From: Escherichia phage Baret
Sequence record: OR896834.1
Strand: one strand, 5' to 3'
DNA: 64,000 bases
Shown: positions 4,222-41,907 of the stretch, one piece after another
How the letters are laid out: every line of letters begins with the position of its first letter
Position numbering within the stretch: position 1 is the stretch's first letter
Program-made: the position numbers and the translations under genes
The notes under the pieces: model-generated
Told to the model about the DNA's origin: nothing
Databases searched by the model: none
Seen by the model: only the letters and a program-made list of their open reading frames with translations

Positions 4222-5598
4222 ATGACTATTGATATTAATAAGCTGAAAGAAGAACTTGGTCTGGGTGATCTGGCTAAATCTCTGGAAGGTCTGACCGCTG
4301 CTCAGAAAGCCCAGGAAGCTGAACGTATGCGTAAAGAGCAGGAAGAAAAAGAACTGGCTCGTATGAATGACCTGGTTTCTAAAGCAGTTGGCGAAGATCG
4401 TCAGAAACTGGAACAAGCTCTGGAACTGGTTAAGTCCCTGGATGAAAAATCTAAGAAGAGCGCAGAACTGTTCGCACAGACTGTAGAAAAGCAGCAGGAA
4501 ACCATTGTTGGTCTTCAGGATGAAATTAAATCTCTGCTAGCAGCTCGTGAAGGTCGTTCCTTCGTCGGTGATAGCGTAGCTAAAGCACTGTATGGTACTC
4601 AGGAAGCTTTTGAAGATGAAGTTGAAAAACTAGTTCTCCTGTCTTATATGATGGAGAAGGACGTATTTGAAACTGAACATGGTAAAGCCCACGTTAAAGC
4701 CGTTAATACTTCTTCCTCTGTACAGGTTTCCAGTGAAAACTACGAAACTATTTTCTCTACCCGTATCCTTCGTGACCTGCAGAAAGAGTTAGTAGTTGGT
4801 GCACTGTTCGATGAACTGCCAATGTCCAGCAAAATTCTTACTATGCTGGTTGAGCCTGAAGCTGGAAAAGCTACTTGGGTAGATGCTGGTTCCTACGGTA
4901 CTGATGCTACTGTTGGTAACGAAGTTAAAGGTACATTAACTGAAATTAGTTTTAAAACCTACAAACTGGCTGCTAAGTCCTTCATTACTGATGAAACTGA
5001 AGAAGATGCAATCTTCTCCCTGCTGCCGCTGCTGCGTAAGCGTCTGATTGAAGCACACGCTGTTTCTATCGAAGAAGCTTTTATGACTGGTGATGGTACT
5101 GGTAAGCCGAAAGGTCTGTTGAAACTGGCTGAAGATGATGGTGCTAAAGTTACTACTGAAGCTAAAGCTGATGGTACTGTTCTGGTAACTGCTAAAACTA
5201 TCTCTAAACTGCGTCGTAAACTGGGTCGTCATGGTCTGAAACTGAGCAAACTGGTACTGATAGTATCTATGGATGCTTACTACGATCTGCTGGAAGACGA
5301 AGAATGGCAGGATGTTGCACAGGTTGGTAACGATGCTGTTAAACTGCAAGGTCAGGTTGGTCGTATCTATGGTCTTCCGGTTGTAGTTTCTGAATACTTC
5401 CCAGCTAAAGCAGCAGATAAAGAGTTCGCAGTTATTGTTTATAAAGATAACTTCGTAATGCCGCGTCAGCGTGCTGTTACTGTTGAACGTGAGCGCCAAG
5501 CTGGTAAACAGCGTGATGCGTACTACGTTACTCAGCGTGTTAACCTGCAACGTTACTTCGAAAACGGCGTTGTATCTGGTGCTTACGCTGCATCTTAA
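4222..5598 (+). CDS. major capsid protein precursor with N-terminal coiled-coil scaffolding (delta) domain
   Basis: 458 aa; first ~150 aa charged coiled-coil (KLKEELGLGD...EIKSLLAAREG), then capsid-like body; strong codon bias (ctg/cgt/ggt) typical of a highly expressed gene. Confidence 0.85.
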   Translation: MTIDINKLKEELGLGDLAKSLEGLTAAQKAQEAERMRKEQEEKELARMNDLVSKAVGEDRQKLEQALELVKSLDEKSKKSAELFAQTVEKQQETIVGLQDEIKSLLAAREGRSFVGDSVAKALYGTQEAFEDEVEKLVLLSYMMEKDVFETEHGKAHVKAVNTSSSVQVSSENYETIFSTRILRDLQKELVVGALFDELPMSSKILTMLVEPEAGKATWVDAGSYGTDATVGNEVKGTLTEISFKTYKLAAKSFITDETEEDAIFSLLPLLRKRLIEAHAVSIEEAFMTGDGTGKPKGLLKLAEDDGAKVTTEAKADGTVLVTAKTISKLRRKLGRHGLKLSKLVLIVSMDAYYDLLEDEEWQDVAQVGNDAVKLQGQVGRIYGLPVVVSEYFPAKAADKEFAVIVYKDNFVMPRQRAVTVERERQAGKQRDAYYVTQRVNLQRYFENGVVSGAYAAS

Positions 5599-5618
5599 TA
5601 CAGGCTTTTCAGCCGATA

Positions 5619-5644
5619 AGGAGAGCTTCGGCTCTCCTTTTTTA
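5619..5644 (+). terminator. rho-independent terminator after capsid gene
   Basis: GGAGAGC-ttcg-GCTCTCC hairpin followed by TTTTTT. Confidence 0.7.
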
Positions 5645-5657
5645 TTGGGAAAAATAA

Positions 5658-6170
5658 ATGCAAATCATCACAGCCGAAGATTATAGATTATATGGTGGTT
5701 TAAAACGACCTGAATTAGAATCTGGTGTAGAAATGATGATTACTGCTGCCAATGCGCTGATCACAAGCCTTCTAGGCATGGATGACGCTGATGCGGTAGA
5801 CCAGTTAATCAATACAAAACCTACACGTAGGAAATATTTTCTGAGCTCACCATCTGCTACCTCCGTAACTAAAGTGACGATTAACGATAATGAGATTGAC
5901 CCAGAGCAGTATAGGCTATACTCTGACGGTATTATCCTCCTAAAGTTTAATCCTCCAGAAGGTTATATGGATGTAGCATATACACAAGGTGGATTCAATC
6001 CAATACCTGAAGATCTTAAGTTAGCAGCATGTATGCTAGTAGATCATTGGCATAAACAAGATTACCGCCAAGCTAAAACAATTGGTGGTGAAACAGTAAC
6101 CTTCAATAATACTAAATCTGGTATTCCAGAGCATATTCGTACTATTATTGAAGTATATAGGAGAGTATAA
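5658..6170 (+). CDS. head completion / connector protein (putative)
   Basis: 170 aa directly after capsid gene; synteny with T5-like head-tail joining genes. Confidence 0.45.
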   Translation: MQIITAEDYRLYGGLKRPELESGVEMMITAANALITSLLGMDDADAVDQLINTKPTRRKYFLSSPSATSVTKVTINDNEIDPEQYRLYSDGIILLKFNPPEGYMDVAYTQGGFNPIPEDLKLAACMLVDHWHKQDYRQAKTIGGETVTFNNTKSGIPEHIRTIIEVYRRV

Positions 6171-6940: not shown

Positions 6941-7426
6941 ATGGACCATAGAACAAGTATTGCACAAGCTATGGTTGACCGAATCTCTAAACAAATGGAT
7001 GGTTCTCAACCTGACGAATATTTTAATAACCTATACGGAAACGTTTCTCGTCAAACTTATAAATTTGAGGAAATACGAGAGTTTCCTTATGTGGCAGTTC
7101 ATATCGGAACTGAAACTGGGCAGTATCTTCCTTCGGGCCAACAGTGGATGTTTTTAGAACTTCCAATCCTGGTGTACGATAAAGAGAAAACAGACATTCA
7201 AGAGCAACTTGAAAAACTCGTAGCGGATATAAAAACCGTTATTGACACAGGTGGAAATTTAGAATATACTGTTAGTAAACCTAATGGATCGATCTTCCCA
7301 TGTGAGGCAACTGATATGATCATTACATCAGTTAGTACAGATGAGGGTCTACTGGCCCCATATGGTTTAGCAGAAATAAATGTAACAGTGAGGTATCAGC
7401 CTCCACGTAGGTCACTTCGCAGATAA
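6941..7426 (+). CDS. tail terminator protein (putative)
   Basis: 161 aa immediately upstream of tail tube gene. Confidence 0.45.
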   Translation: MDHRTSIAQAMVDRISKQMDGSQPDEYFNNLYGNVSRQTYKFEEIREFPYVAVHIGTETGQYLPSGQQWMFLELPILVYDKEKTDIQEQLEKLVADIKTVIDTGGNLEYTVSKPNGSIFPCEATDMIITSVSTDEGLLAPYGLAEINVTVRYQPPRRSLRR

Positions 7427-7452: not shown

Positions 7453-8859
7453 ATGTCTTTACAACTATTACGTAATACTCGAATCTTCGTGTCTACGGTT
7501 AAGACCGGTCACAATAAGACCAACACGCAAGAGATTCTAGTTCAGGATGATATTTCTTGGGGTCAGGACAGTAACTCAACAGATATTACTGTTAATGAAG
7601 CTGGTCCGCGTCCAACTCGTGGTTCTAAACGTTTTAATGACTCTTTAAACGCAGCTGAGTGGAGTTTCTCTACTTATATCCTGCCATATAAAGATAAAAC
7701 TACTAACAAACAAATTGTTCCTGACTATATGTTATGGCATGCACTTTCTAGTGGTAAAGCTATTAACTTAGAAGGTAATACAGGGGCACACAATAACGAA
7801 GCTAACTTTATGGTTAACTTCAAAGATAACTCTTATCACGAGTTAGCAATGTTACATATTTATATTCTGACTGATAAAGCATGGAGTTATATCGATTCCT
7901 GTCAGATTAATCAGGCAGAAGTTAACGTTGATATCGAAGATATTGGTCGTGTAACTTGGTCTGGTAATGGTAATCAGCTTATTCCTCTGGATGCTCAGCC
8001 ATTTGATCCAGATGTGGTAGGTATTGATGATGAAACTTATATGACTATTCAGAGTTCTTATATTAAGAACAAACTGACTATCCTGAAAATTAAGGATATG
8101 GATTCTGATAAGGCATATGATATCCCTATTACTGGTGGTACTTTCACCATTAATAATAACATCACGTACCTAACCCCAAATATTATGTCCCGTGTAAATA
8201 TTCCAATCGGTTCATTTACTGGTGCGTTTGAACTAACTGGTTCTCTGACAGCTTACCTTAATGATAAAGCTCTAGGATCTATAGAGCTATATAAAGATCT
8301 AATTAAAACTCTTAAGGTAGTTAACAAGTTTGAGATTGCACTTATCCTTGGTGGTGAATATGATGATGAACGTCCTGCAGCTGTGTTAGTTGCTAAACAG
8401 GCGCATGTTAACATTCCTACTATTGAGACTGATGATGTACTTGGTACTTCAGTAGAGTTTAAGGCTATCCCTACAGATCTGGATACTGGTGATGAAGGTT
8501 ATCTTGGTTTCTCTAGCAAGTATACTAAAACCACTGTGGCTAATCTGATTGCTACAGGAGATGGCGCTAAAACTCCACCAAAATTAGTTGAATCAATCAC
8601 AGTTAAATCTGCGGGTAATGTTACTTCAGTAGAGAATAGCAATACTTTGCAAATGTCTGTTGAGGTAACTCCGCCAGATGCTACTAATAGTGCTGTAACT
8701 TGGTCTATTTCTAGTGGTAATGCAGCTACAATTGATCCAGAATCTGGTCTATTAACTGCGGATACTACTAAGACTGGAGAAGTTACTGTGAAAGCTGTAG
8801 CTAAAGACGGTTCTGGTGTAGAAGGTACTAAGAGCATTACAGTTACTGCTGGTGGCTAA
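7453..8859 (+). CDS. tail tube protein with C-terminal Ig-like domain (pb6-like)
   Basis: 468 aa; AGGAG RBS; C-terminal ~90 aa (ITVKSAGNVTSVENSNTLQMSVEVTPPDATNSAVTWSISSG...) reads as a bacterial Ig-like fold; position before chaperones and tape measure. Confidence 0.7.
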   Translation: MSLQLLRNTRIFVSTVKTGHNKTNTQEILVQDDISWGQDSNSTDITVNEAGPRPTRGSKRFNDSLNAAEWSFSTYILPYKDKTTNKQIVPDYMLWHALSSGKAINLEGNTGAHNNEANFMVNFKDNSYHELAMLHIYILTDKAWSYIDSCQINQAEVNVDIEDIGRVTWSGNGNQLIPLDAQPFDPDVVGIDDETYMTIQSSYIKNKLTILKIKDMDSDKAYDIPITGGTFTINNNITYLTPNIMSRVNIPIGSFTGAFELTGSLTAYLNDKALGSIELYKDLIKTLKVVNKFEIALILGGEYDDERPAAVLVAKQAHVNIPTIETDDVLGTSVEFKAIPTDLDTGDEGYLGFSSKYTKTTVANLIATGDGAKTPPKLVESITVKSAGNVTSVENSNTLQMSVEVTPPDATNSAVTWSISSGNAATIDPESGLLTADTTKTGEVTVKAVAKDGSGVEGTKSITVTAGG

Positions 8860-8863
8860 TTAA

Positions 8864-9766
8864 ATGTACTACTCTCTAATGAGAGAGTCAAAAGTTATAG
8901 TTGAGTATGATGGTAGGGCATTTCATTTTGATGCCCTATCAAACTATGATATACAGACTTCCTACGAGGAATTCAAGACTCTTCGTAGGACTGTCCATCG
9001 TAGAACTAACTATGCAGACTCTATTATAAATGCTCAAACCCCCTCTTCTATCTCTCTAGCAGTAAATTTCAGTAATACTCTTACTGAGGCTAACTTCTTT
9101 GAATGGTTAGGTTTTGATAGAAAAGGTAATACTTTCTTACTCCCACTATATAGTAGTAATATTGAACCTATTATGTTCAATATCTATATAGTAAATAAAG
9201 ATAATAACTGTGTATATTTTGAAAACTGCTATGTATCTACAGTAGATTTTTCTTTAGATAAGAATATACCAATTCTTAATGTTGGTATTGAATCGGGGAA
9301 ATTTTCCGAAGTATCTACATATAGAGAAGCAGCTTCTATTATACAGGGTGAAGTAATGTCTTATAGCCCAGTAGTAGCTTCTACTAATGGCAGCATCTTA
9401 CCCGGTCTTATTTCTGCCTCTTTATCTTTCCAACAGCAGTGCTCCTGGAGAGAGGATAAGAGTGTTTTTGATATAAATAAAATTTATAATAATAAAAGAG
9501 CTTATGTAAATGAAATGAATGCTTCGGCAACCATTTCTCTATATTACTTAAAACGTTTTGCAGGAGATATGGTTTACAATATCGAACCGGAGACAGATGT
9601 ACCTTTAAATATAAGAAATAATAATATTTCTATAGATTTTCCTTCAGCACGTATTACAAAACGCCTAGATTTCTCAGATGTGTATAGAGTTGAGTGGGAT
9701 ATTATACCTACTGCTTCTTCAGACCCAGTGAGAATAGATTTCTTTGGAGAAATTAAAAATGATTAA
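8864..9766 (+). CDS. tail-associated structural protein (p140-like, putative)
   Basis: 300 aa between tail tube and chaperone ORFs. Confidence 0.4.
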   Translation: MYYSLMRESKVIVEYDGRAFHFDALSNYDIQTSYEEFKTLRRTVHRRTNYADSIINAQTPSSISLAVNFSNTLTEANFFEWLGFDRKGNTFLLPLYSSNIEPIMFNIYIVNKDNNCVYFENCYVSTVDFSLDKNIPILNVGIESGKFSEVSTYREAASIIQGEVMSYSPVVASTNGSILPGLISASLSFQQQCSWREDKSVFDINKIYNNKRAYVNEMNASATISLYYLKRFAGDMVYNIEPETDVPLNIRNNNISIDFPSARITKRLDFSDVYRVEWDIIPTASSDPVRIDFFGEIKND

Positions 9767-10163
9767 TTTAAAAGATATTACTCTTGATACTCGTACTATT
9801 ACTCTTTCCTACCCAGGTATGCCTAACTTTAAATTAGAACTTAACTATATGTCTCGTGCTACCTCTAAACGTGTTATTTCTTCTGCTAAACGCGATGAAT
9901 GGGTTAATGGTACTTTGATTCAGGTACAGGATGATGATAAGTTCATTGAAGCCTTCGTTGACGCAGCTATTAAAGGTTGGACCGGTTTGACTGTAGGTGA
10001 CGTTGAAAAACTGATGCTGATTGAAACAGATGCTGATCCTGCTACTGAAGTTCCTTTTAGCCGCGATAATGCTGTAATGCTCATGCAGAACTCTGCTGCG
10101 TTTGATTCTTGGATCAACCAGACAGTGTTCCACTTAGACACTTTTCGTAGCCCAAAAGCGTAA
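9759..10163 (+). CDS. tail assembly chaperone, short form (putative)
   Basis: ATG 9759 with GGAG RBS 9 nt upstream (ORF-track start 9744 is TTG); sits just upstream of tape measure gene; downstream ORF is open in +1 frame across its stop. Confidence 0.45.
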   Translation: MINLKDITLDTRTITLSYPGMPNFKLELNYMSRATSKRVISSAKRDEWVNGTLIQVQDDDKFIEAFVDAAIKGWTGLTVGDVEKLMLIETDADPATEVPFSRDNAVMLMQNSAAFDSWINQTVFHLDTFRSPKA

Positions 10164-10224: not shown

Positions 10225-10593
10225 ATGACTAAACAACAATATTTAATACTTTGTGAATCAATGGGTATAGAGCCTGATCCTAAGGCCATGCCTGTTGAAC
10301 TTGAAGACTTTCCACCTATTGTGGCTACTAGTATGAATATTTATAACAGTCTAATTGACTGCTTCATACCAGGTGACTTTCCTATCTTTATAGGTAAAGA
10401 TAAGGCTGCTCTAGGTGTTTTATTTGATATTTATGGGATTACTGATCCTATAGAGAAAGAATTTGTTCTACACATTATCAATATATTTGATGCTAAAGCT
10501 GTAGATGCTGCACGTAAACGTGCTGAGAAGCATAAACCGCAAAACGGAAGGATTCCTAACGTTAAGCCACATGCTAGATCTCGTGCACGGTAA
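10225..10593 (+). CDS. tail assembly chaperone C-terminal extension ORF (possibly expressed as frameshift fusion)
   Basis: no recognisable RBS before ATG 10225; its frame is open from 10138 and overlaps end of upstream ORF. Confidence 0.4.
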   Translation: MTKQQYLILCESMGIEPDPKAMPVELEDFPPIVATSMNIYNSLIDCFIPGDFPIFIGKDKAALGVLFDIYGITDPIEKEFVLHIINIFDAKAVDAARKRAEKHKPQNGRIPNVKPHARSRAR

Positions 10594-10628
10594 AAGTTTC
10601 CTCCAATGGGCGTTCCACGATGAGGCTT

Positions 10629-10660
10629 GGCTCTGGGTGATTTGCCCAGAGCCTTTTTTA
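10629..10660 (+). terminator. rho-independent terminator
   Basis: GGCTCTGGG-7nt-CCCAGAGCC hairpin followed by TTTTTT. Confidence 0.7.
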
Positions 10661-10676
10661 TTGGGAAAAATAAAAT

Positions 10677-13600
10677 ATGACTGATAAGCTAATACGAGAA
10701 TTACTAATAGACGTTAAACAGAAGGGGGCAACCCGTACTGCAAAGTCTATTGAAAACGTATCTGATGCATTAGAAAATGCTGCTGCTGCTTCCGAACTGA
10801 CAAATGAACAGTTAGGTAAAATGCCCAAAACTCTATATTCCATTGAGAGGGCAGCAGATAGAGCAGCGAAAAGTCTTACTAAAATGCAAGCTAGTAGGGG
10901 TATGGCTGGTATCACTAAATCCATTGATGGTATTGGTGATAAGCTAGATTACCTGGCTATCCAACTTATTGAAGTAACAGATAAGCTAGAAATTGGATTC
11001 GATGGAGTTTCTAGATCTGTTAAAGCAATGGGTAATGATGTTGCAGCTGCAACAGAGAAAGTTCAAGATAGATTGTATGACACTAATAGAGTTTTAGGCG
11101 GTACAACTAGAGGTTTTAATGATACTGCTGGTGCCGCTGGTAGAGCGTCTAGAGCCATTGGTAATACTTCTGGTTCAGCTCGTGGTGCAACTCGTGATTT
11201 TGCAGCAATGGCTAAGATAGGTGGTAGTTTACCTATTATGTACGCAGCTCTTGCTTCCAACATCTTCGTTTTGCAATCTGCATTCGAACAACTTAAATTA
11301 GGTGATCAGCTAAATCGTCTAGAAAAATTTGGTGTTATAGTAGGTACTCAGACAGGTACTCCTGTTCAGACCCTTGCTAGATCACTACAAGAAGCTGCTG
11401 GATATGCTATTTCTTTTGAGGAAGCAATGAGACAGGCATCTTCAGCATCTGCTTATGGATTTGATGCCGAACAACTTAATAAATTTGGTTTAGTAGCTCG
11501 TCGTGCTGCTGCTGTTCTTGGTGTTGATATGACTGATGCACTTAACCGTGTAATTAAGGGCGTATCTAAACAAGAAATCGAACTTCTGGATGAACTTGGT
11601 GTCACCATCCGTCTTAATGACGCATACGCTGATTATGTTAAACAGTTAAATGCTGCAAACACAGGTATAACATATAATGTTAATAGTCTTACCACTTTCC
11701 AGAAACAACAAGCATACGCTAATGCTGTTATAGCAGAGTCTACTAAACGTTTTGGTTACTTAGATGAAGTTTTACGTGCTACTCCGTGGGAGCAGTTTGC
11801 CGCTAATGCTGATGCCGCACTGAGAAAGATTCAGCAGGCTGCTGCTAAGTATTTAGGGCCGGTAATTGATGCTATCAACACAGTATTTTATACTTCTCAG
11901 GCTTCTATATCTGCTGAAGCAGCTAGAGCTCAAGAAAAAACCAATAGACAGATAGATCCTACCAACGTTGGTGCTGTTGCTTTAAGTTTGGCCGCTTCTG
12001 AAGAAGGCTATAATAAAGCTCTAGATATGTACAAGGAATCTCTTGATAAGCGTAATAAGCTAAAATCCGAATTCGATAAACGAATGGAGCAAGCGGATTT
12101 CTATACAAGATTAGCCATACGTCAAGTTGGTGAAGGTATTCCTGTTGGTCTTGCTGCTGCTGGTGCTTCCGAAGCTAATAAAAAGTTCGTAGAAGAAACT
12201 GCGGCTATGGGTCTACAAGTAACCAGACTAGGTAAGGAAGTAGAAGATTCTACTGAAAACCTTAATGCTTGGAAGTCAGCCTATCAAGCTGCGGGTGCTG
12301 CTGCTGCAAAAGCTAATCCAGAGTTTCAGAAACAGATTAATCTACAGAGAGATACTACTGATCCTGGTGCTGTATATGACTTTAACTCCACAGTATTAAA
12401 AGGACTAACTGAACAACAGAAAGCATATAATCAAACTAAGAAAACTGCTAGTGACTTAGCTAATGATATACAGAACGTTGCTCAGAATACAGATACTGCT
12501 GCTAAAACTAGTGCTACTTTAGCAGATGCTATAAAAAACATAGAATCTCTATCATTAGGCACTGGTAAGAGTGCCGATGAGTATGTTAAAAACCTTAACC
12601 TGGGCTATAACACACTGTCTGAAATGAAAACTGCATCTCAGGCTCTATCTGAGTATGTTAAACTAACTGGTAATGAAACTAAAAATCAGTTAGCAGTTCA
12701 ACAGAAAATAGCTGATGTGTACAACCAAACTAAGGATAAGGAAAAGGCTCAGGAAGCTGGTAGACGTTTAGAGTTGCAACAGTTAGAAGAGCAAGAAGCT
12801 GCTTTACGCCGTGTTCTTCAAACAAACCAGGGAAATAAAGCTGTTGAGAAAGAAATTGAAAAAATTCAGCTGGAGAAACTTAGACTTACCAATCAGGGTA
12901 TGGAAGCCCAGAAGAAGGTCAAGGATTACACAGATAAAATTCTTGGTGTAGATCGTGAGATAGCTCTCCTGAATGACCGTACTATGACTACTACTCAATA
13001 TAGATTAGCTCAGCTAAAACTAGAACTAACTGTAGAGAAAGAGAAGTACGAATGGTATACAAAACAAGCGGACAAACAGAAAGAGGCGGAACAGTCTAGA
13101 CGTGCGCAAGCACAAATAAGCCGGGAGTTATGGGAAGCGGAGAAGCAGGCAACTGCCTCACATGTATCAGCTCTCATGGATGCACTAGAAGTCAGCCAAA
13201 CACAAAGAAATGTTACTGGCCAAGCTCAGATTCTTACGGAAAGATTATCTGTTTTGCAAGAACAGCTAGAACTATCTAAGGGCAATACCGAAGAAGAGAT
13301 CAAGTATCGTAATGAGATCTATAAAACTGCTGCTGCTCTAGAGCAACTTAGAAAGCAAAGAGAAGGCCAAATGCAGCAACAGGTAGGATCTTCTGTGGGT
13401 GCTGTGTACACTCCTACAACTGGACTATCTGGGGAAGACAAAGATTTTGCAGATATGCAAAATAGAATGGCTTCTTATGATCAGGCAATCTCTAAGCTAT
13501 CTGAATTAAATTCTGAAGCAACCGCTGTGGCTCAAAGTATGGGTAACTTAACTAACGCTATGATTCAGTTCTCTCAGGGATCCTTAGATACTACCTCCTT

Positions 13601-14357: not shown

Positions 14358-14364
14358 AACTGGA

Positions 14365-14390
14365 GGAGGACTTTGAGTCCTCCTTTTCTT
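14365..14390 (+). terminator. rho-independent terminator after tape measure gene
   Basis: GGAGGACT-ttg-AGTCCTCC hairpin followed by TTTT. Confidence 0.7.
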
Positions 14391-14410
14391 TATGGAAAAA
14401 TAAAAATTTC

Positions 14411-14439
14411 TTGATAAAATTTTCTAATACTATTATAAT
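14411..14439 (+). promoter_or_regulatory. sigma70-type promoter (TTGATA-17-TATAAT) inside late structural operon
   Basis: -35 TTGATA 14411-14416, 17-nt spacer, -10 TATAAT 14434-14439, AT-rich upstream; GAGGAG RBS and ATG 14467 follow. Confidence 0.5.
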
Positions 14440-14466
14440 ATTGTTATTAAAGAGGAGAAATTAACT

Positions 14467-15081
14467 ATGAGATTACCAGACCCATACACGAATCCAGAAC
14501 TTTCAGGCTTAGGATTCGAAAGTGTTAACCTGATTGATAATGACCCAGTAATTCGTGATGAGTTACCAAATGGTAAAGTTAACGAAGTTAAGGTATCTGC
14601 TCAATACTGGGGTATAAATATTTCTTATCCAGAATTATTTCCAGATGAATATAGTGTTCTAGATGCATTTATTCTAGAATACAAAAGGACTGGTGGTTAT
14701 ATAGATGTTATATTACCCCAATACGAAGCTTTTAGAGTTAGAGGTAATACTAGTCTAGTAAATATACCTGCTGGACAGAAAGGTTCTAATATAACTATGG
14801 ATACAAAAGGACTTCTTACAGGTACTCCAAAACCGGGGGATCTATTTAAGCTGTCTAACCACCCAAAAGTATATAAAATAACATCATTTAACAAATCAGG
14901 TAATACATGGTCTATAAACTTATACCCTGATTTATTTATAACTACTACTGGAGCGGAGAAGCCAGTATTTAATGGAATACTATTTAGAACAAAACTCATG
15001 AATGGTGATGCTTTTGGATCTACACTAAATAATAACGGAACATACTCCAACATCTCATTAAATTTACGGGAAAGTCTATGA
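14467..15081 (+). CDS. distal tail protein (pb9-like)
   Basis: 204 aa immediately after tape measure; synteny. Confidence 0.55.
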   Translation: MRLPDPYTNPELSGLGFESVNLIDNDPVIRDELPNGKVNEVKVSAQYWGINISYPELFPDEYSVLDAFILEYKRTGGYIDVILPQYEAFRVRGNTSLVNIPAGQKGSNITMDTKGLLTGTPKPGDLFKLSNHPKVYKITSFNKSGNTWSINLYPDLFITTTGAEKPVFNGILFRTKLMNGDAFGSTLNNNGTYSNISLNLRESL

Positions 15082-24840: not shown

Positions 24841-24885
24841 AGAAAACCCCAGTGGACAAAATCCACTGGGGTTTATTATTTATTT
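24841..24885. terminator. bidirectional rho-independent terminator at convergence of late (+) and early (-) transcription
   Basis: 10-bp perfect stem CCCCAGTGGA/TCCACTGGGG, A-run upstream and T-run downstream. Confidence 0.8.
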
Positions 24886-28538: not shown

Positions 28539-29496
28539 ATTTCGCAGCTCTAGCCAAGATTCTATCAATGTCGCCTTGAGATAGCTTCTCGACTTCACGG
28601 AAGTAAAGTTCAAGTTCGCCTAATATATCAAGATCAACAAGATTTAACTTAGCGTCTTTAGTAACTCGATGATTAATTTTCTTATCTAATAAATCAGAGT
28701 CTTTGATAGACTTTAATTGAACAACGTCACCAGTAACTTCATAGACTACACGATCATAATCACTAGGTTCCATCTCTTCACCAGCCCCGATTGTTTTACG
28801 AATCAGTTGTGGTAAATCACCGAGTTCAATCCACTCTACTTTTAATGTATCGGTATCAATGATAAAGCAACCATTTGTACCTTTTGTGCGTTCTCTATGG
28901 AACGATGTAGTTAATGGAGACCCTGGGTAGAGAAGTCTAGTAGATCCGATAGTCTGGCTATTAGTATAAGAATGTAAATCACCAGCAATTACAGTATCAT
29001 AACAGTTGTACTTAGTTAGATCAATTTCTGGTTTTACATGCGGAGGGATTTCACCGCGAACATGCGTGAAACATAGTTTTGATTCAGATGGTTTCCACTT
29101 AGATTTATGGATCTCATCATATGGAACAATATCAAATTCAGGAGAACGATATGGTTTGGTAATTACTTCCCACTTCCCACTAGTTACTTTATTAATAACT
29201 CCTGCATAGTGATATAGACATGAAATGGTTTTAGTTAGCATTTCATGATTTCCAGTAAAGATTTTGCCTGGATGGTCAAGTCTTGACATGAACTGTTCAA
29301 GCAGCTCTATTTCTTCTGACGACGGGTCGGAATGGTCAAATAAATCACCACCAATAATATGAAGATCACAGTTATGATTATGGAATACATCATTTAAACG
29401 GCCTCCCAACATTAAGAATCTCTTCTTTTGCCATTCTTTGGGAATTTTGTCCTGCCCAAGTTTTATATGATGATCTGCGCTAAAGAGTATTTTCAT
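28519..29496 (-). CDS. sbcD: SbcD/Mre11-like nuclease
   Basis: N-terminal MKILFSADHH metallophosphoesterase motif, GDLFDH, GNHE; overlaps sbcC start by 20 nt. Confidence 0.8.
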   Translation of the reverse strand: MKILFSADHHIKLGQDKIPKEWQKKRFLMLGGRLNDVFHNHNCDLHIIGGDLFDHSDPSSEEIELLEQFMSRLDHPGKIFTGNHEMLTKTISCLYHYAGVINKVTSGKWEVITKPYRSPEFDIVPYDEIHKSKWKPSESKLCFTHVRGEIPPHVKPEIDLTKYNCYDTVIAGDLHSYTNSQTIGSTRLLYPGSPLTTSFHRERTKGTNGCFIIDTDTLKVEWIELGDLPQLIRKTIGAGEEMEPSDYDRVVYEVTGDVVQLKSIKDSDLLDKKINHRVTKDAKLNLVDLDILGELELYFREVEKLSQGDIDRILARAAKYVKDYN

Positions 29497-30008
29497 CTTT
29501 GTGCATACTTTCGCTTTATCTCTTGAATATCTATTCCTTGTTTCAGTTCACTCAAAACTTGGTCTAAGATGCCCTCGAGATCTTTTCGTTCTTTACTAGC
29601 CATTATATGGTAGTGTTTTTTATTATAGTACAAACGTAGAGTATATGTACTTGATTTGGCATTGTAGCTTATATTTCCAGAATAATTTTCTATATTCTGC
29701 ATGTTAGATCGGTGATCACCATTTTTGAGATTGTCCCACCTATTATCGTGTCGTATGCGATTATCATGGTCAATTTCTTCTGGCATCTCCCCGGTTTGCA
29801 TTAACCAAATAAGTCTGTGCAACCTATATTTAGTTCCAAATACCCTAGCGTCTAAATATCCAGACTGCTTAGAGGGAGTTCCCACAGGTTTTCCTACACA
29901 ATCTTTAGGAAGCCCATTTGACCATACTTTATAGGTTACAATACCTGTACCTGGATCATATGAGAATCTACGATGACATTCATCGTACAACTTAACTAAA
30001 TCATCCAT
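29493..30008 (-). CDS. HNH homing endonuclease (AP2-domain type), paralog of 36672-37205
   Basis: EEIDHDNRIRHDNRWDNL HNH core; inserted between sbcD and SSB-like gene. Confidence 0.75.
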   Translation of the reverse strand: MDDLVKLYDECHRRFSYDPGTGIVTYKVWSNGLPKDCVGKPVGTPSKQSGYLDARVFGTKYRLHRLIWLMQTGEMPEEIDHDNRIRHDNRWDNLKNGDHRSNMQNIENYSGNISYNAKSSTYTLRLYYNKKHYHIMASKERKDLEGILDQVLSELKQGIDIQEIKRKYAQR

Positions 30009-30009
30009 A

Positions 30010-30036
30010 AGTTAAAAAGAAAGGGGCCGAAGCCCC
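30010..30036 (-). terminator. rho-independent terminator (minus strand)
   Basis: AGGGGC-ttcg-GCCCCT hairpin followed on minus strand by TTTCTTTTT. Confidence 0.6.
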
Positions 30037-30044
30037 TCTATTTA

Positions 30045-31202: not shown

Positions 31203-31232
31203 ATTATACTAGATTTCGAGAGAATTTAGCAA
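31203..31232 (-). promoter_or_regulatory. sigma70-type early promoter (TTGCTA-18-TATAAT)
   Basis: minus-strand -35 at 31227-31232, -10 at 31203-31208, AT-rich upstream block. Confidence 0.65.
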
Positions 31233-31303
31233 CTAAAATTTTTATTTTTCTGCTTCGGACTTTCTTATCAATCCGAAACTTTCTCTCTCAAATTTATGTA
31301 TAT

Positions 31304-41548: not shown

Positions 41549-41857
41549 CTAGGCATTCTTGGCTTTGAGTTCTTCAGCTCGTTTCTGTACTTCATGTAAA
41601 ACCTCAGATTCGCTAAGAATCTGTGTAAACGCATAGAAAAGCTGCGATGTTGTTTCTAGGGTGTAAGGAAAAGAGAAGCCAGATTTCGTTGGAAACCATT
41701 CATCATTAATATCAAGAAGCCAGTAACGAATACCCATGTATAGATTCCCACGAAATTCAGATACTGTTAATCTTACTTGTTCTCCCTCCTTCTCCCAGAG
41801 TATGATGGACTGGTCATCAACGTGTCCTTCATAGTTTTGATTTACCTGTTCGCTCAT
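41549..41857 (-). CDS. hypothetical protein
   Basis: 102-aa ORF with ATG start. Confidence 0.45.
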   Translation of the reverse strand: MSEQVNQNYEGHVDDQSIILWEKEGEQVRLTVSEFRGNLYMGIRYWLLDINDEWFPTKSGFSFPYTLETTSQLFYAFTQILSESEVLHEVQKRAEELKAKNA

Positions 41858-41907
41858 TTACATATCCCAAATACACAAAAAGCCCCATATAGGGGCTAAT
41901 TGGTTTC

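Follow-up and report, generated by a model that had tools for sequence, protein, structure and literature searches.

A 23-nt string at two late gene junctions of the T5-like Escherichia phage Baret is probably a terminator tail joined to a weak ribosome binding site

Two intergenic junctions in the late region of Escherichia phage Baret, a T5-like (Demerecviridae) phage, share an identical string of 23 nt, CCTTTTTTATTGGGAAAAATAAA. Exact copies lie on the + strand at 5636–5658 and 10652–10674 of the window, that is, the whole 64,000-nt stretch of record OR896834.1 that was analysed here. Going by annotated relatives, the first junction (J1) separates the major capsid gene from the head-completion gene, the second (J2) the tape-measure chaperone gene from the tape measure gene, and the third (J3) the tape measure gene from that of the distal tail protein. 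The original prediction had described both copies as identical, as directly following a terminator hairpin, and as leading into the head-completion and tape measure genes, and all of this was borne out. In both copies, the 23-mer begins inside a strong terminator-like hairpin, whose stem is completed by its first two bases. The further claim that the string ends 0–2 nt before an ATG is right for J2, where it stops 2 nt short of the start codon at 10677, but not for J1, where its final A is also the A of the ATG (5658–5660), a 1-nt overlap with the start codon.

At J1, the major capsid gene (4222–5598) is followed by a small hairpin, GGCT-TTTC-AGCC (5603–5614, +; MFE fold), placed just 3' of the capsid stop and 5' of the terminator; its stem is kept in relatives while the loops vary (e.g., GGC-TATACT-GCC, GGC-TTAAC-GCC, and GGCT-AAT-AGCC). 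The terminator hairpin itself, AAGGAGAGC-UUCG-GCUCUCCUU (5618–5639, +; 9 bp), was recovered by both the terminator scan and the fold centroid and starts 20 nt past the capsid stop codon. It is identical in the T5-like phages of E. coli, Klebsiella, Pectobacterium, and Proteus, its stem is invariant in most genera, and it carries a "terminator" annotation in phage BB1. The T-tract, TTTTTTATT (5638–5646, +), makes up the first module of the 23-mer together with the stem CC at 5636–5637; it varies in length among relatives (6, 13, or 23 T), and TTTTTTATT is also found in Vibrio phage JSF12. The second module is the translation initiation region (5647–5657, +), composed of GGGA at 5647–5650 and an AAAATAA spacer, which leads to the head-completion ATG at 5658.

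The J1 GGGA gives an anti-Shine–Dalgarno (SD) duplex of −4.2 kcal/mol at a spacing of 6, and the region is annotated as a ribosome binding site (RBS) in phage Seafire. At the homologous positions, relatives possess GGA, AGGA, GGGT, AGAGG, GGAG, GGGG, or GGAGG. Over 29 unique Markadamsvirinae sequences, 44 columns of the 59-nt J1 spacer do not vary at all, and the majority base has a mean frequency of 0.981, compared with 0.79–0.86 for third codon positions; by this measure, the spacer is under purifying selection. Conservation of the spacer within the Markadamsvirinae is above what a generic A-rich spacer would need.

At J2, the tape-measure chaperone gene (10225–10593) is followed by a conserved non-coding hairpin with a near-invariant loop, GGGCRUUCCACG (10594–10628, +), located 5' of the terminator. 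Two pairs of its stem show compensatory change, and it had no match in Rfam. Frame-breaking indels between relatives argue against reading this hairpin as coding sequence, and a single occurrence in the window argues against the J2 upstream block being a repeated site (e.g., a T5 nick site); the BF23 paper offers no consensus for nicks. The terminator hairpin, GGCUCUGGGU-GAUUU-GCCCAGAGCC (10629–10653, +; 11 bp), lies 3' of the chaperone gene, 36 nt past its stop, and is annotated "terminator" in BB1 and Lindwurm. In Klebsiella and Proteus relatives, its stem shows compensatory changes: over only eight lineages, both partners are altered in two pairs, and 87% of cells remain paired.

The J2 T-tract, again TTTTTTATT (10654–10662, +), runs into a translation initiation region (10663–10676, +) made of GGGA at 10663–10666 and the spacer AAAATAAAAT, after which comes the ATG of the tape measure gene at 10677. 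Here, too, the anti-SD duplex is −4.2 kcal/mol, at a spacing of 9, and an RBS is annotated at this place in Lindwurm. The 10-nt gap to the ATG is close to the upper limit of what is usual for an SD, and GGGA is weak. Relatives possess GGA, AGGTGA, GAGG, GGAG, or AGGAG in place of GGGA, and their spacers range from 7 to 12 nt, with indels of one base either way in the A-run. In T5, the T-tract is kept and everything 3' of it is replaced: exactly GGGAAAAATAAAAT (14 nt) has been exchanged for a CapR-domain mobile ORF, which brings its own AGGA and ends AGGAAAACATTAG-ATG before the tape measure gene.

The J3 terminator (14362–14393, +) consists of a hairpin (14362–14386) and a T-tract, TTTTCTTTAT (14384–14393), the last three Ts of the stem doubling as the start of the tract; it is likewise annotated "terminator" in BB1. 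A related copy of the 23-mer had been placed here, and a string, TTTATGGAAAAATAAAAA, is indeed present (at 14389–14406, and not from 14388), but it belongs with a different element. The A/T tract GAAAAATAAAAATTT (14395–14409, +) resembles an UP element and lies 1 nt upstream of TTGATA, at about −36 to −50 of a sigma70-type promoter, TTGATA-17-TATAAT (14411–14439, +; 11/12 match). This exact 15-mer occurs twice in the window, and its second copy (31236–31250, −) is found 3 nt upstream of a −35 hexamer, TTGCTA, at 31232(−). The J3 −35/−10 pair is conserved in 8/8 compared genomes, to which JSF12 and D124 add, by eye, TTGCAT-18-TATAAT and TTGAAA-17-TATAGT; six genera keep an A-tract at the J3 distance from the −35, but not the TGG. 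Downstream, a strong SD, GAGGAG (14452–14457; duplex −9.1 kcal/mol), precedes the distal tail protein gene, whose ATG is at 14467. Judging from these sequences, the third "copy" is the UP-type A-tract of a conserved sigma70 promoter, unlike the element at J1 and J2.

Conserved promoters were found in the late region only at 1377, 7242, and 14411. The first, TTTACA-17-TATACT (1377–1405, +), is conserved in 8/9 compared genomes and is predicted to start a unit that extends from the nicking endonuclease to the major capsid gene and ends at the J1 terminator. The second, TTGACA-17-TATACT (7242–7270, +), is located in the tail-terminator gene, 211 nt upstream of the tail-tube gene, and its unit stops at the J2 terminator; nine of ten genomes, from E. 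coli to Vibrio phages, possess it 198–211 nt away with an 11–12/12 match. With the predicted terminators at 5618, 10629, and 14362, these promoters provide a unit map of the late region for T5-like phages. A scan for −35/−10 matches of at least 9/12 found none at J1 or J2, and a hidden sigma70 promoter 3' of the A-tract at these junctions was rejected on that ground. The late promoters of T5 have been described as sigma70-type with −35, −10, and UP elements, and validated by primer extension (PMC7472727).

One way of assessing the 23-mer is to ask how often it occurs. The window holds no third copy at three mismatches or fewer, and none was seen across 100 shuffled sequences. A motif search of the kind suggested with the original prediction found it at none of the remaining late gene starts in the window; in relatives, J1 and J2 again carry it. 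The 12-mer core GGGAAAAATAAA, with one mismatch allowed, occurs three times against 0.88 expected, each time 3' of one of the three late terminators; since at least three matches were reached in 6/100 shuffles, the count is only mildly unusual, and it is the positions that are striking. Folded alone, the 23-mer reaches −1.5 kcal/mol, a value equalled by 18/200 shuffles, so a secondary structure of its own (the hairpin UUUAUU-GGGAAA-AAUAAA) was rejected; the J1 centroid fold leaves these bases unpaired. An Rfam scan of the whole window returned no family.

The junctions were compared in about 45 of the roughly 900 Demerecviridae genomes. Across about ten genera, all that persists 3' of the T-tract is a G-patch 4–12 nt upstream of the ATG, and its forms are always SD-like (GGGA, GGA, AGGA, AGAGG, GGAG, and similar). 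The T-tract followed by GG is present at both junctions in Klebsiella, Pectobacterium, and Proteus phages and through to Vibrio cholerae phage JSF12, and those Vibrio phages that share the TTTTTTATT tail have a canonical GGAGG, AGGAG, or AGGAGG in place of GGGA. In the window, the SD duplexes of 20 late genes range from −0.1 to −9.3 kcal/mol, with the −4.2 kcal/mol of J1 and J2 inside this range, and other genes share the style of a purine patch with an A/T spacer (e.g., the tail-tube gene, GGAGAAAATAATTAA-ATG).

The comparison lends no support to gene conversion or concerted evolution between J1 and J2, as lineages with an altered J1 (L166 and L145) retain an unaltered J2. A variant at one junction has no counterpart at the other; the copies are therefore most likely identical through the common descent of two similarly constrained junctions, and not through ongoing homogenisation. 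The identity over 23 nt exceeds what a common function needs; the other terminator tails in the window differ from that of the 23-mer, and a common origin must therefore be invoked as well.

We consider it highly probable (roughly 0.85) that the 23-mer is a terminator tail, CC+TTTTTTATT, joined to a weak RBS, with the next genes expressed by read-through at low output. It is a composite of two ordinary, separable modules and no single new element; the T-tract expansions, the A-run indels, and the swap of exactly GGGAAAAATAAAAT in T5 all demonstrate this separability. The CC and T-tract would be the stem end and U-tract of an intrinsic terminator, which would close the capsid unit at J1 and the tail-tube/chaperone unit at J2. 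At both junctions there is a stable GC-rich hairpin past the stop codon, with a 9-nt U-tract directly 3' of the stem, within the roughly 7–9 nt that one expects of such terminators.

The remainder, GGGAAAAATAA(A), would be where translation of the next gene is initiated: GGGA would act as a weak SD (G.U, G-C, G-C, and A-U against the 3' end of 16S rRNA), and the A-rich run as an unstructured spacer. The purine patch has an SD-like spacing from the ATG (6 at J1 and 9 at J2), stays SD-like 4–12 nt from the ATG in relatives, and is not locked in stable structure at J1; at J2, it may pair with an upstream UUCCA. The original prediction saw in the GGGA the only room for an SD, which agrees with this division into SD and spacer. 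Its suggestion of a translation re-initiation or enhancer element survives as plain translation initiation from the GGGA; nothing points to re-initiation, given that 59 and 83 nt, with hairpins in them, separate the two genes from the stop codons upstream. Some public GenBank records already contain the terminator and RBS reading of these bases.

Hairpins, T-tract, and RBS take up the 59- and 83-nt intergenic regions and leave no room for a promoter; the head-completion and tape measure genes should therefore depend on terminator read-through. The head-completion gene with the two genes that follow it, and likewise the tape measure gene, would be expressed only by polymerases that read through. 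The placement is that of an attenuator, with a high-copy gene upstream and the next, lower-copy genes lacking a promoter of their own. Read-through and a weak SD together would set a low output of low-copy virion parts relative to capsid and tail tube, and, from the sequence, the head-completion and tape-measure proteins are probably made in far smaller amounts than those of the capsid and tail tube. Termination itself, the read-through fraction, and the stoichiometric purpose are what we infer from this arrangement. The strong SDs that Pectobacterium, Proteus, and Vibrio relatives possess at these junctions weaken any claim that the SD is weak by design. In the literature on T5-like phages, we found no transcript 5' or 3' ends, read-through measurements, or ribosome-binding data.

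There are several other readings. It is unlikely, though it has the best prospects among them, that the U-tract, GGGA, and A-run form one dual-use unit: the U-tract would be a landing site for ribosomal protein S1 that offsets the weak SD on the minority of transcripts produced by read-through, the J2 SD would be gated by a UUCCA helix enclosing the terminator, and the whole would act as a combined transcriptional and translational attenuator fixing the ratio of tape measure to tail tube. The 10594–10628 hairpin may pair with the J2 SD, through UUCCA (10613–10617) and UGGGA (10662–10666); this pairing is 87.5% kept over eight lineages, with no compensatory change, and is broken in Proteus and My1.

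Slightly more doubtful is an mRNA site for a phage or host regulator (a RegA-like repressor or activator) that would co-control both genes. The exact 23-nt identity at two genes and the very high conservation of the spacer in the Markadamsvirinae speak for it, as does the resemblance between J1 and J2 in Vibrio phage River4 (TATGGGGAATACAATG vs. TATGGAGAAAACAATG). However, A-run indels, a distance of 4–12 nt between G-patch and ATG, and T-tract expansions are all tolerated, a change at one junction comes without a matching change at the other, and the J2 of T5 lacks the element; across genera the SD-like character alone is preserved, and no candidate regulator was found.

RNase E typically targets single-stranded A/U-rich contexts beside stable hairpins, with a preference for R-N-|-W-U-U. 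The 23-mer is a single-stranded A/U-rich stretch adjoining stable hairpins, and could be imagined as a processing site, another option of the original prediction, at which RNase E or another endonuclease cuts 3' of the hairpin and splits a stable, hairpin-capped upstream mRNA from the downstream one. We regard this as improbable: by eye, the purine-rich core mismatches the enzyme's preference, a constant SD-like G-patch at SD distance is left unexplained, and cleavage would add to the terminator and RBS reading without replacing it.

Still less credence is due to a local duplication, or a tract left by gene conversion, that is neutral and without a function. It would account for an exact identity that starts inside the stems of hairpins that otherwise differ, and the CapR-domain mobile ORFs inserted at both junctions in relatives show these to be recombination-prone spots; yet conservation at both junctions is far higher than at synonymous sites, the T-tract and GG are kept at both out to JSF12, and there is no sign of ongoing homogenisation. 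The two copies may still have a common origin, which is compatible with the terminator and RBS explanation.

Least credible is a T4-like late −10 driving the next late gene, as the original prediction also proposed from the loose resemblance of AAAAATAAA to TATAAATA: although the related J3 A-tract does belong to a promoter region, J1 and J2 have no −35/−10 pair, T5 late promoters are sigma70-type and the T5 J2 is without the element, TATAAATA is not enriched (10 in the window vs. 7.8 expected) and by coordinate comparison 0/10 lie in intergenic spacers before late gene starts, and a −10 ending 0–2 nt from the ATG would place the transcription start inside the ORF, contradicting promoter geometry. 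Going by its similarity to the UP-type tract at J3, the A-rich core could conceivably be the relic of a lost promoter.

The terminator-then-RBS layout is not restricted to J1 and J2. On the early strand of the window, a hairpin (AGCCCC-TATAT-GGGGCT), a T-tract, and TTGGGATATGTAA precede an ATG at 41857 (41855–41897, −), and the layout is found again at 30039(−). Outside the T5-like phages, unrelated IMG/VR phages have it 3' of the same UUCG hairpin, and in an unrelated 43-kb siphovirus an identical 20-mer has the same layout upstream of the tape-measure gene; overall, the 20-mer is present in three stretches of two non-T5 phages (L183/L186 and L188). Since this 20-mer is of low complexity and the collection is large, its count is about what chance allows, and we claim neither transfer nor a horizontally spread mobile "cassette".

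A terminator tail abutting the next RBS is a standard compact arrangement in phages and should be given little weight as a discovery. The value of the analysis is that it marks late genes expected to depend on terminator read-through and alerts phage engineers that indels at J1 or J2 would alter both termination and the translation of the head-completion and tape measure genes.

The closest analogue is the Tphi/gene 11 junction of phage T7, which, like J1, has its terminator directly 3' of the major capsid gene; there, the SD and ATG of the next structural gene, a tail gene, come no more than 18 nt after the T-tract, and no promoter lies in between (GGGGTTTTTTG-CTGAAAGGAGGAACTAT-ATG). Tphi has been described as tuned to be leaky, such that upstream genes are expressed above downstream ones (PMC9157156). 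The differences are that T7 transcribes with an RNA polymerase of its own and has a G.U-rich hairpin of 13 bp with about 62% efficiency, whereas T5-like phages use the host sigma70 polymerase and the hairpins here, judged from sequence, resemble strong canonical E. coli terminators; that the downstream SD is a weak GGGA here and a strong AAGGAGG in T7; and that Baret, unlike T7, employs the layout twice with the same tail and RBS string. UP elements are A/T-rich tracts at about −40 to −60, directly upstream of a −35. T5 early and late promoter alignments have been described with them (PMC7472727). The J3 tract, at about −36 to −50 and next to a near-consensus −35, resembles them, whereas the J1 and J2 copies, having no −35/−10 downstream, fall outside the UP class. 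Compared with a canonical intrinsic terminator and SD region, J1 and J2 present the same GC-rich hairpin, 9-nt U-tract, and purine patch 6–10 nt from the ATG, and only the exact reuse of 23 nt at two junctions and the strong conservation are unusual.

The sequence comes from a T5-like phage (Demerecviridae, Markadamsvirinae) and represents the late-gene and early-gene region; its top matches are vB_Eco_mar004NP2 and vB_SalS-SIA3lw, and gene identities were assigned from annotated relatives. As the original prediction had it, the 23-mer CCTTTTTTATTGGGAAAAATAAA is present in two exact copies on the + strand: at 5636-5658, between the major capsid and head-completion genes (junction J1), and at 10652-10674, between the tape-measure chaperone and tape-measure genes (J2). 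At up to three mismatches, there were no further copies in the window and none in shuffled sequences. The core 12-mer, with one mismatch allowed, occurs three times in the window, in every case behind one of the three late terminators (expected 0.88; three reached in 6 of 100 shuffles).

The first two bases of each copy are also the last two in the stem of a strong terminator-like hairpin. At J1, the capsid stop codon (5596-5598) is followed by a small hairpin (5603-5614), the predicted terminator hairpin T1 with its UUCG loop (5618-5639), the T-tract TTTTTTATT (5638-5646), GGGA (5647-5650), AAAATAA, and the head-completion ATG (5658), whose A is the last A of the 23-mer. At J2, the order is chaperone stop codon (10591-10593), conserved hairpin (10594-10628), predicted terminator hairpin T2 (10629-10653), the same T-tract (10654-10662), GGGA (10663-10666), AAAATAAAAT, and the tape-measure ATG (10677), 2 nt beyond the end of the 23-mer. 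These elements take up the spacers (59 nt at J1, 83 nt at J2) completely. The 5' stem halves of the terminators at J1 (5618-5626) and at J3, the tape measure–distal tail junction (14362-14371), are themselves strong Shine–Dalgarno (SD)-like strings, AAGGAGAG and GGAGGAGGAC, sequestered in hairpins and too distant from start codons for use as ribosome binding sites (RBS).

The best explanation of the 23-mer is probably an ordinary one, the U-tract of a terminator running straight into a weak SD with an A-rich spacer, a combination which we infer is deployed at two predicted read-through junctions. Of the roles that had been proposed, the translational one is right in a plain sense: GGGA is a weak SD and the A-rich run is its spacer. 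The GGGA duplex with the 16S 3' end has an energy of -4.2 kcal/mol (spacings 6 and 9); among twenty late genes, SD duplexes vary between -0.1 and -9.3 kcal/mol, which places GGGA towards the weak end but within the normal range. Initiation regions in Baret typically consist of a purine patch, an A/T spacer, and ATG; that of the tail-tube gene reads GGAGAAAATAATTAA-ATG.

We compared J1 and J2 across about ten genera (Tequintavirus, Epseptimavirus, Sugarlandvirus, Pectobacterium phages DU_PP_V and My1, Proteus Novosibvirus, and three Vibrio genera), where the sole constant 3' of the T-tract is a G-patch, with the ATG 4-12 nt further on. Its variants are all SD-compatible (GGGA, GGA, AGGA, GGGT, AGAGG, GGAG, GAGG, AGGTGA, and GGGG). 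Vibrio phage JSF12 retains the same TTTTTTATT tail and has canonical GGAGG (J1) and AGGAG (J2) at the G-patch position, while Vibrio phage D124 has AGGAGG and AAGGA. Judged from these alignments, such variation is the behavior of an SD. Terminator and RBS annotation of J1 and J2 is already in public records: in Lindwurm, "terminator" spans the hairpin and TTTTTTATT, and the tape-measure "ribosome_binding_site" is GGA; in Seafire, the RBS assigned to the head-completion gene is GGGA; and BB1 has all three terminators.

Three natural experiments show that the 23-mer consists of two separable modules. The J1 T-tract between hairpin and ATTGGG has expanded from 6 T to 13 T in chee24-like phages (L024/L155) and to 23 T in DaisyDussoix (about 6120-6142 of L002); these expansions resemble slippage polymorphism and might alter termination efficiency. 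The A-run shows one-base gains or losses among relatives, with a variable distance to the ATG. In T5 (121,750 bp), J2 is identical through TTTTTTATT, and exactly GGGAAAAATAAAAT is exchanged for about 770 bp, which separate the T-tract from the tape-measure ATG (reverse strand of L108). Within this insert is an ORF of 250 aa whose CapR homology domain is typical of mobile endonuclease-like genes; the insert ends in ACAGGAAAACATTAG-ATG, which would supply the tape-measure gene with a new SD and A-rich spacer. Related CapR ORFs of 189-190 aa lie at J1 in smaug and Kenya-K36 (683-1252 of L181 and 687-1259 of L182); because they are inserted upstream of the hairpins, the head-completion gene retains both terminator and RBS. 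The two spacers look like insertion hot spots for mobile endonuclease-like genes in some T5-like phages.

Across 29 unique Markadamsvirinae sequences, 44 of the 59 columns of the J1 spacer are invariant (mean majority frequency 0.981, against 0.79-0.86 at flanking third codon positions), and purifying selection therefore acts on the junction in its entirety and not on the 23-mer alone. J1 is altered to ATTATTAGGAAAAATAA in L164/L166 and to GGAAAAATAA in L145/L147, with J2 unaltered (J2 being read for L166 and L145). The junctions would seem to evolve without ongoing homogenization and without a sign of co-evolution with a common specific factor.

As for RNA structure, the 23-mer alone folds at -1.5 kcal/mol, a value equalled by 18 of 200 shuffles, and the window holds no Rfam families. 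The J1 centroid leaves the initiation region unpaired beside the terminator hairpin; in the J2 centroid, UUAUUG-GGA pairs with an upstream UUCCA-CGAUGA. Over eight lineages, the 5-bp UUCCA:UGGRA helix is 87.5% paired with one-sided (wobble) changes only, and it is broken in Proteus and My1. The non-coding block UUUCCUCCAAUGGGCGUUCCACGAUGAGGCUU (10594-10628), which lies 3' of the chaperone stop codon and 5' of the J2 terminator, is conserved at the nucleotide level as far as Proteus and Vibrio phages, with a near-invariant core (GGGCRTTCCACG) and a hairpin fold with two compensatory pairs; frame-breaking indels speak against a coding role. It has no second occurrence in the window and no Rfam match. 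UUCCA in its loop might base-pair with the SD of the tape-measure gene. The chaperone ORFs upstream (9759-10163 and 10225-10593) are 61 nt apart, the second in the +1 frame relative to the first, unlike the usual overlapping -1 frameshift pair.

The related string reported after the third late terminator exists, one base from its predicted start (14389-14406), and shares only A-richness with the J1/J2 initiation regions. At J3, the order of elements differs: terminator T3 (14362-14393), GAAAAATAAAAATTT (14395-14409, +) ending 1 nt 5' of the -35 in TTGATA-17-TATAAT, a strong SD (GAGGAG), and ATG at 14467. The sole other exact GAAAAATAAAAATTT in the window, in the early region (31236-31250, -), stops 3 nt short of the -35 in TTGCTA-18-TATAAT. 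In eight genomes, the J3 -35/-10 pair and A-tract keep a constant distance, and the TGG that gives the string its likeness to the 23-mer is not conserved; JSF12 and D124 have promoter-like -35/-10 pairs by eye. T5 early and late promoters have been described with -35, -10, and UP elements (PMC7472727). From its -35-adjacent position, conserved A-tract, and unconserved TGG, the third copy is therefore a UP-type promoter tract, and the 15-mer is probably a UP element shared by one late and one early strong promoter. A late-promoter role for the 23-mer itself is rejected, the promoter scan having found no -35/-10 pair in the J1 and J2 spacers.

The terminator–start arrangement is a common one. 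Four strong terminators in the window run directly into a start codon (J1, J2, 41897(-), reading TTGGGATATGTAA-ATG, and 30039(-)), and four are followed by a promoter (J3, 41566(-), 50762(-), and 56453(+)). At 30006-30039 (-), CTTTTTAACTT separates the terminator hairpin AGAGGGGCTTCGGCCCCTTT from the ATG of an ORF of 171 aa (29493-30008), and no SD is recognizable outside the hairpin; this is an extreme instance of a terminator abutting a start codon. Where the late (+) and early (-) gene blocks converge, a perfect hairpin of 13-14 bp with A-tract and T-tract flanks (24844-24874) scored as a terminator on both strands and is therefore probably bidirectional. In unrelated IMG/VR phages, the same UUCG hairpin often has an SD and ATG within 10-25 nt downstream. 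An identical 20-mer, TTTTTATTGGGAAAAATAAA, abuts the tape-measure ATG behind a different terminator hairpin in an unrelated 43-kb siphovirus (L183/L186; IMG/VR, 42.6 kb; 639-aa gene at 7592-9530 (-) of L183), and in L188 it follows a terminator away from start codons. Given the low complexity of the 20-mer and the size of the collection, this number of matches is about chance level, and the siphovirus case reflects either a convergent solution or chance.

Promoters are predicted at 1377-1405 (TTTACA-17-TATACT, conserved) and, inside the tail-terminator gene, at 7242-7270 (TTGACA-17-TATACT, near-consensus). In 9 of 10 genomes, spanning E. coli to Vibrio phages, the latter precedes the tail-tube gene by 198-211 nt and gives an 11-12/12 match; its position implies a leader of ~175 nt on the tail-tube mRNA. 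We infer a model in which the unit from 1377 would comprise endonuclease, portal, decoration, protease, and capsid, ending at T1; read-through of T1 would express head completion, tail completion, and tail terminator, continuing into the unit from 7242 (tail tube, minor tail, and chaperones), which would end at T2; read-through of T2 would give the tape measure, ending at T3; and a promoter at 14411 would drive the distal tail and baseplate genes. We found no transcript-end data for T5-like phages in the literature. The T5 virion contains hundreds of capsid and about 120 tail-tube subunits, with about 12 copies of head completion and 3 of the tape measure. T1 and T2 sit at exactly the points where expression would need to drop by a large step. 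A documented analogue is Tphi of phage T7, located downstream of capsid gene 10 and upstream of tail gene 11, with the sequence GGGGTTTTTTG-CTGAAAGGAGGAACTAT-ATG; it has been described as tuned to be leaky, with upstream genes expressed more than downstream genes (PMC9157156).
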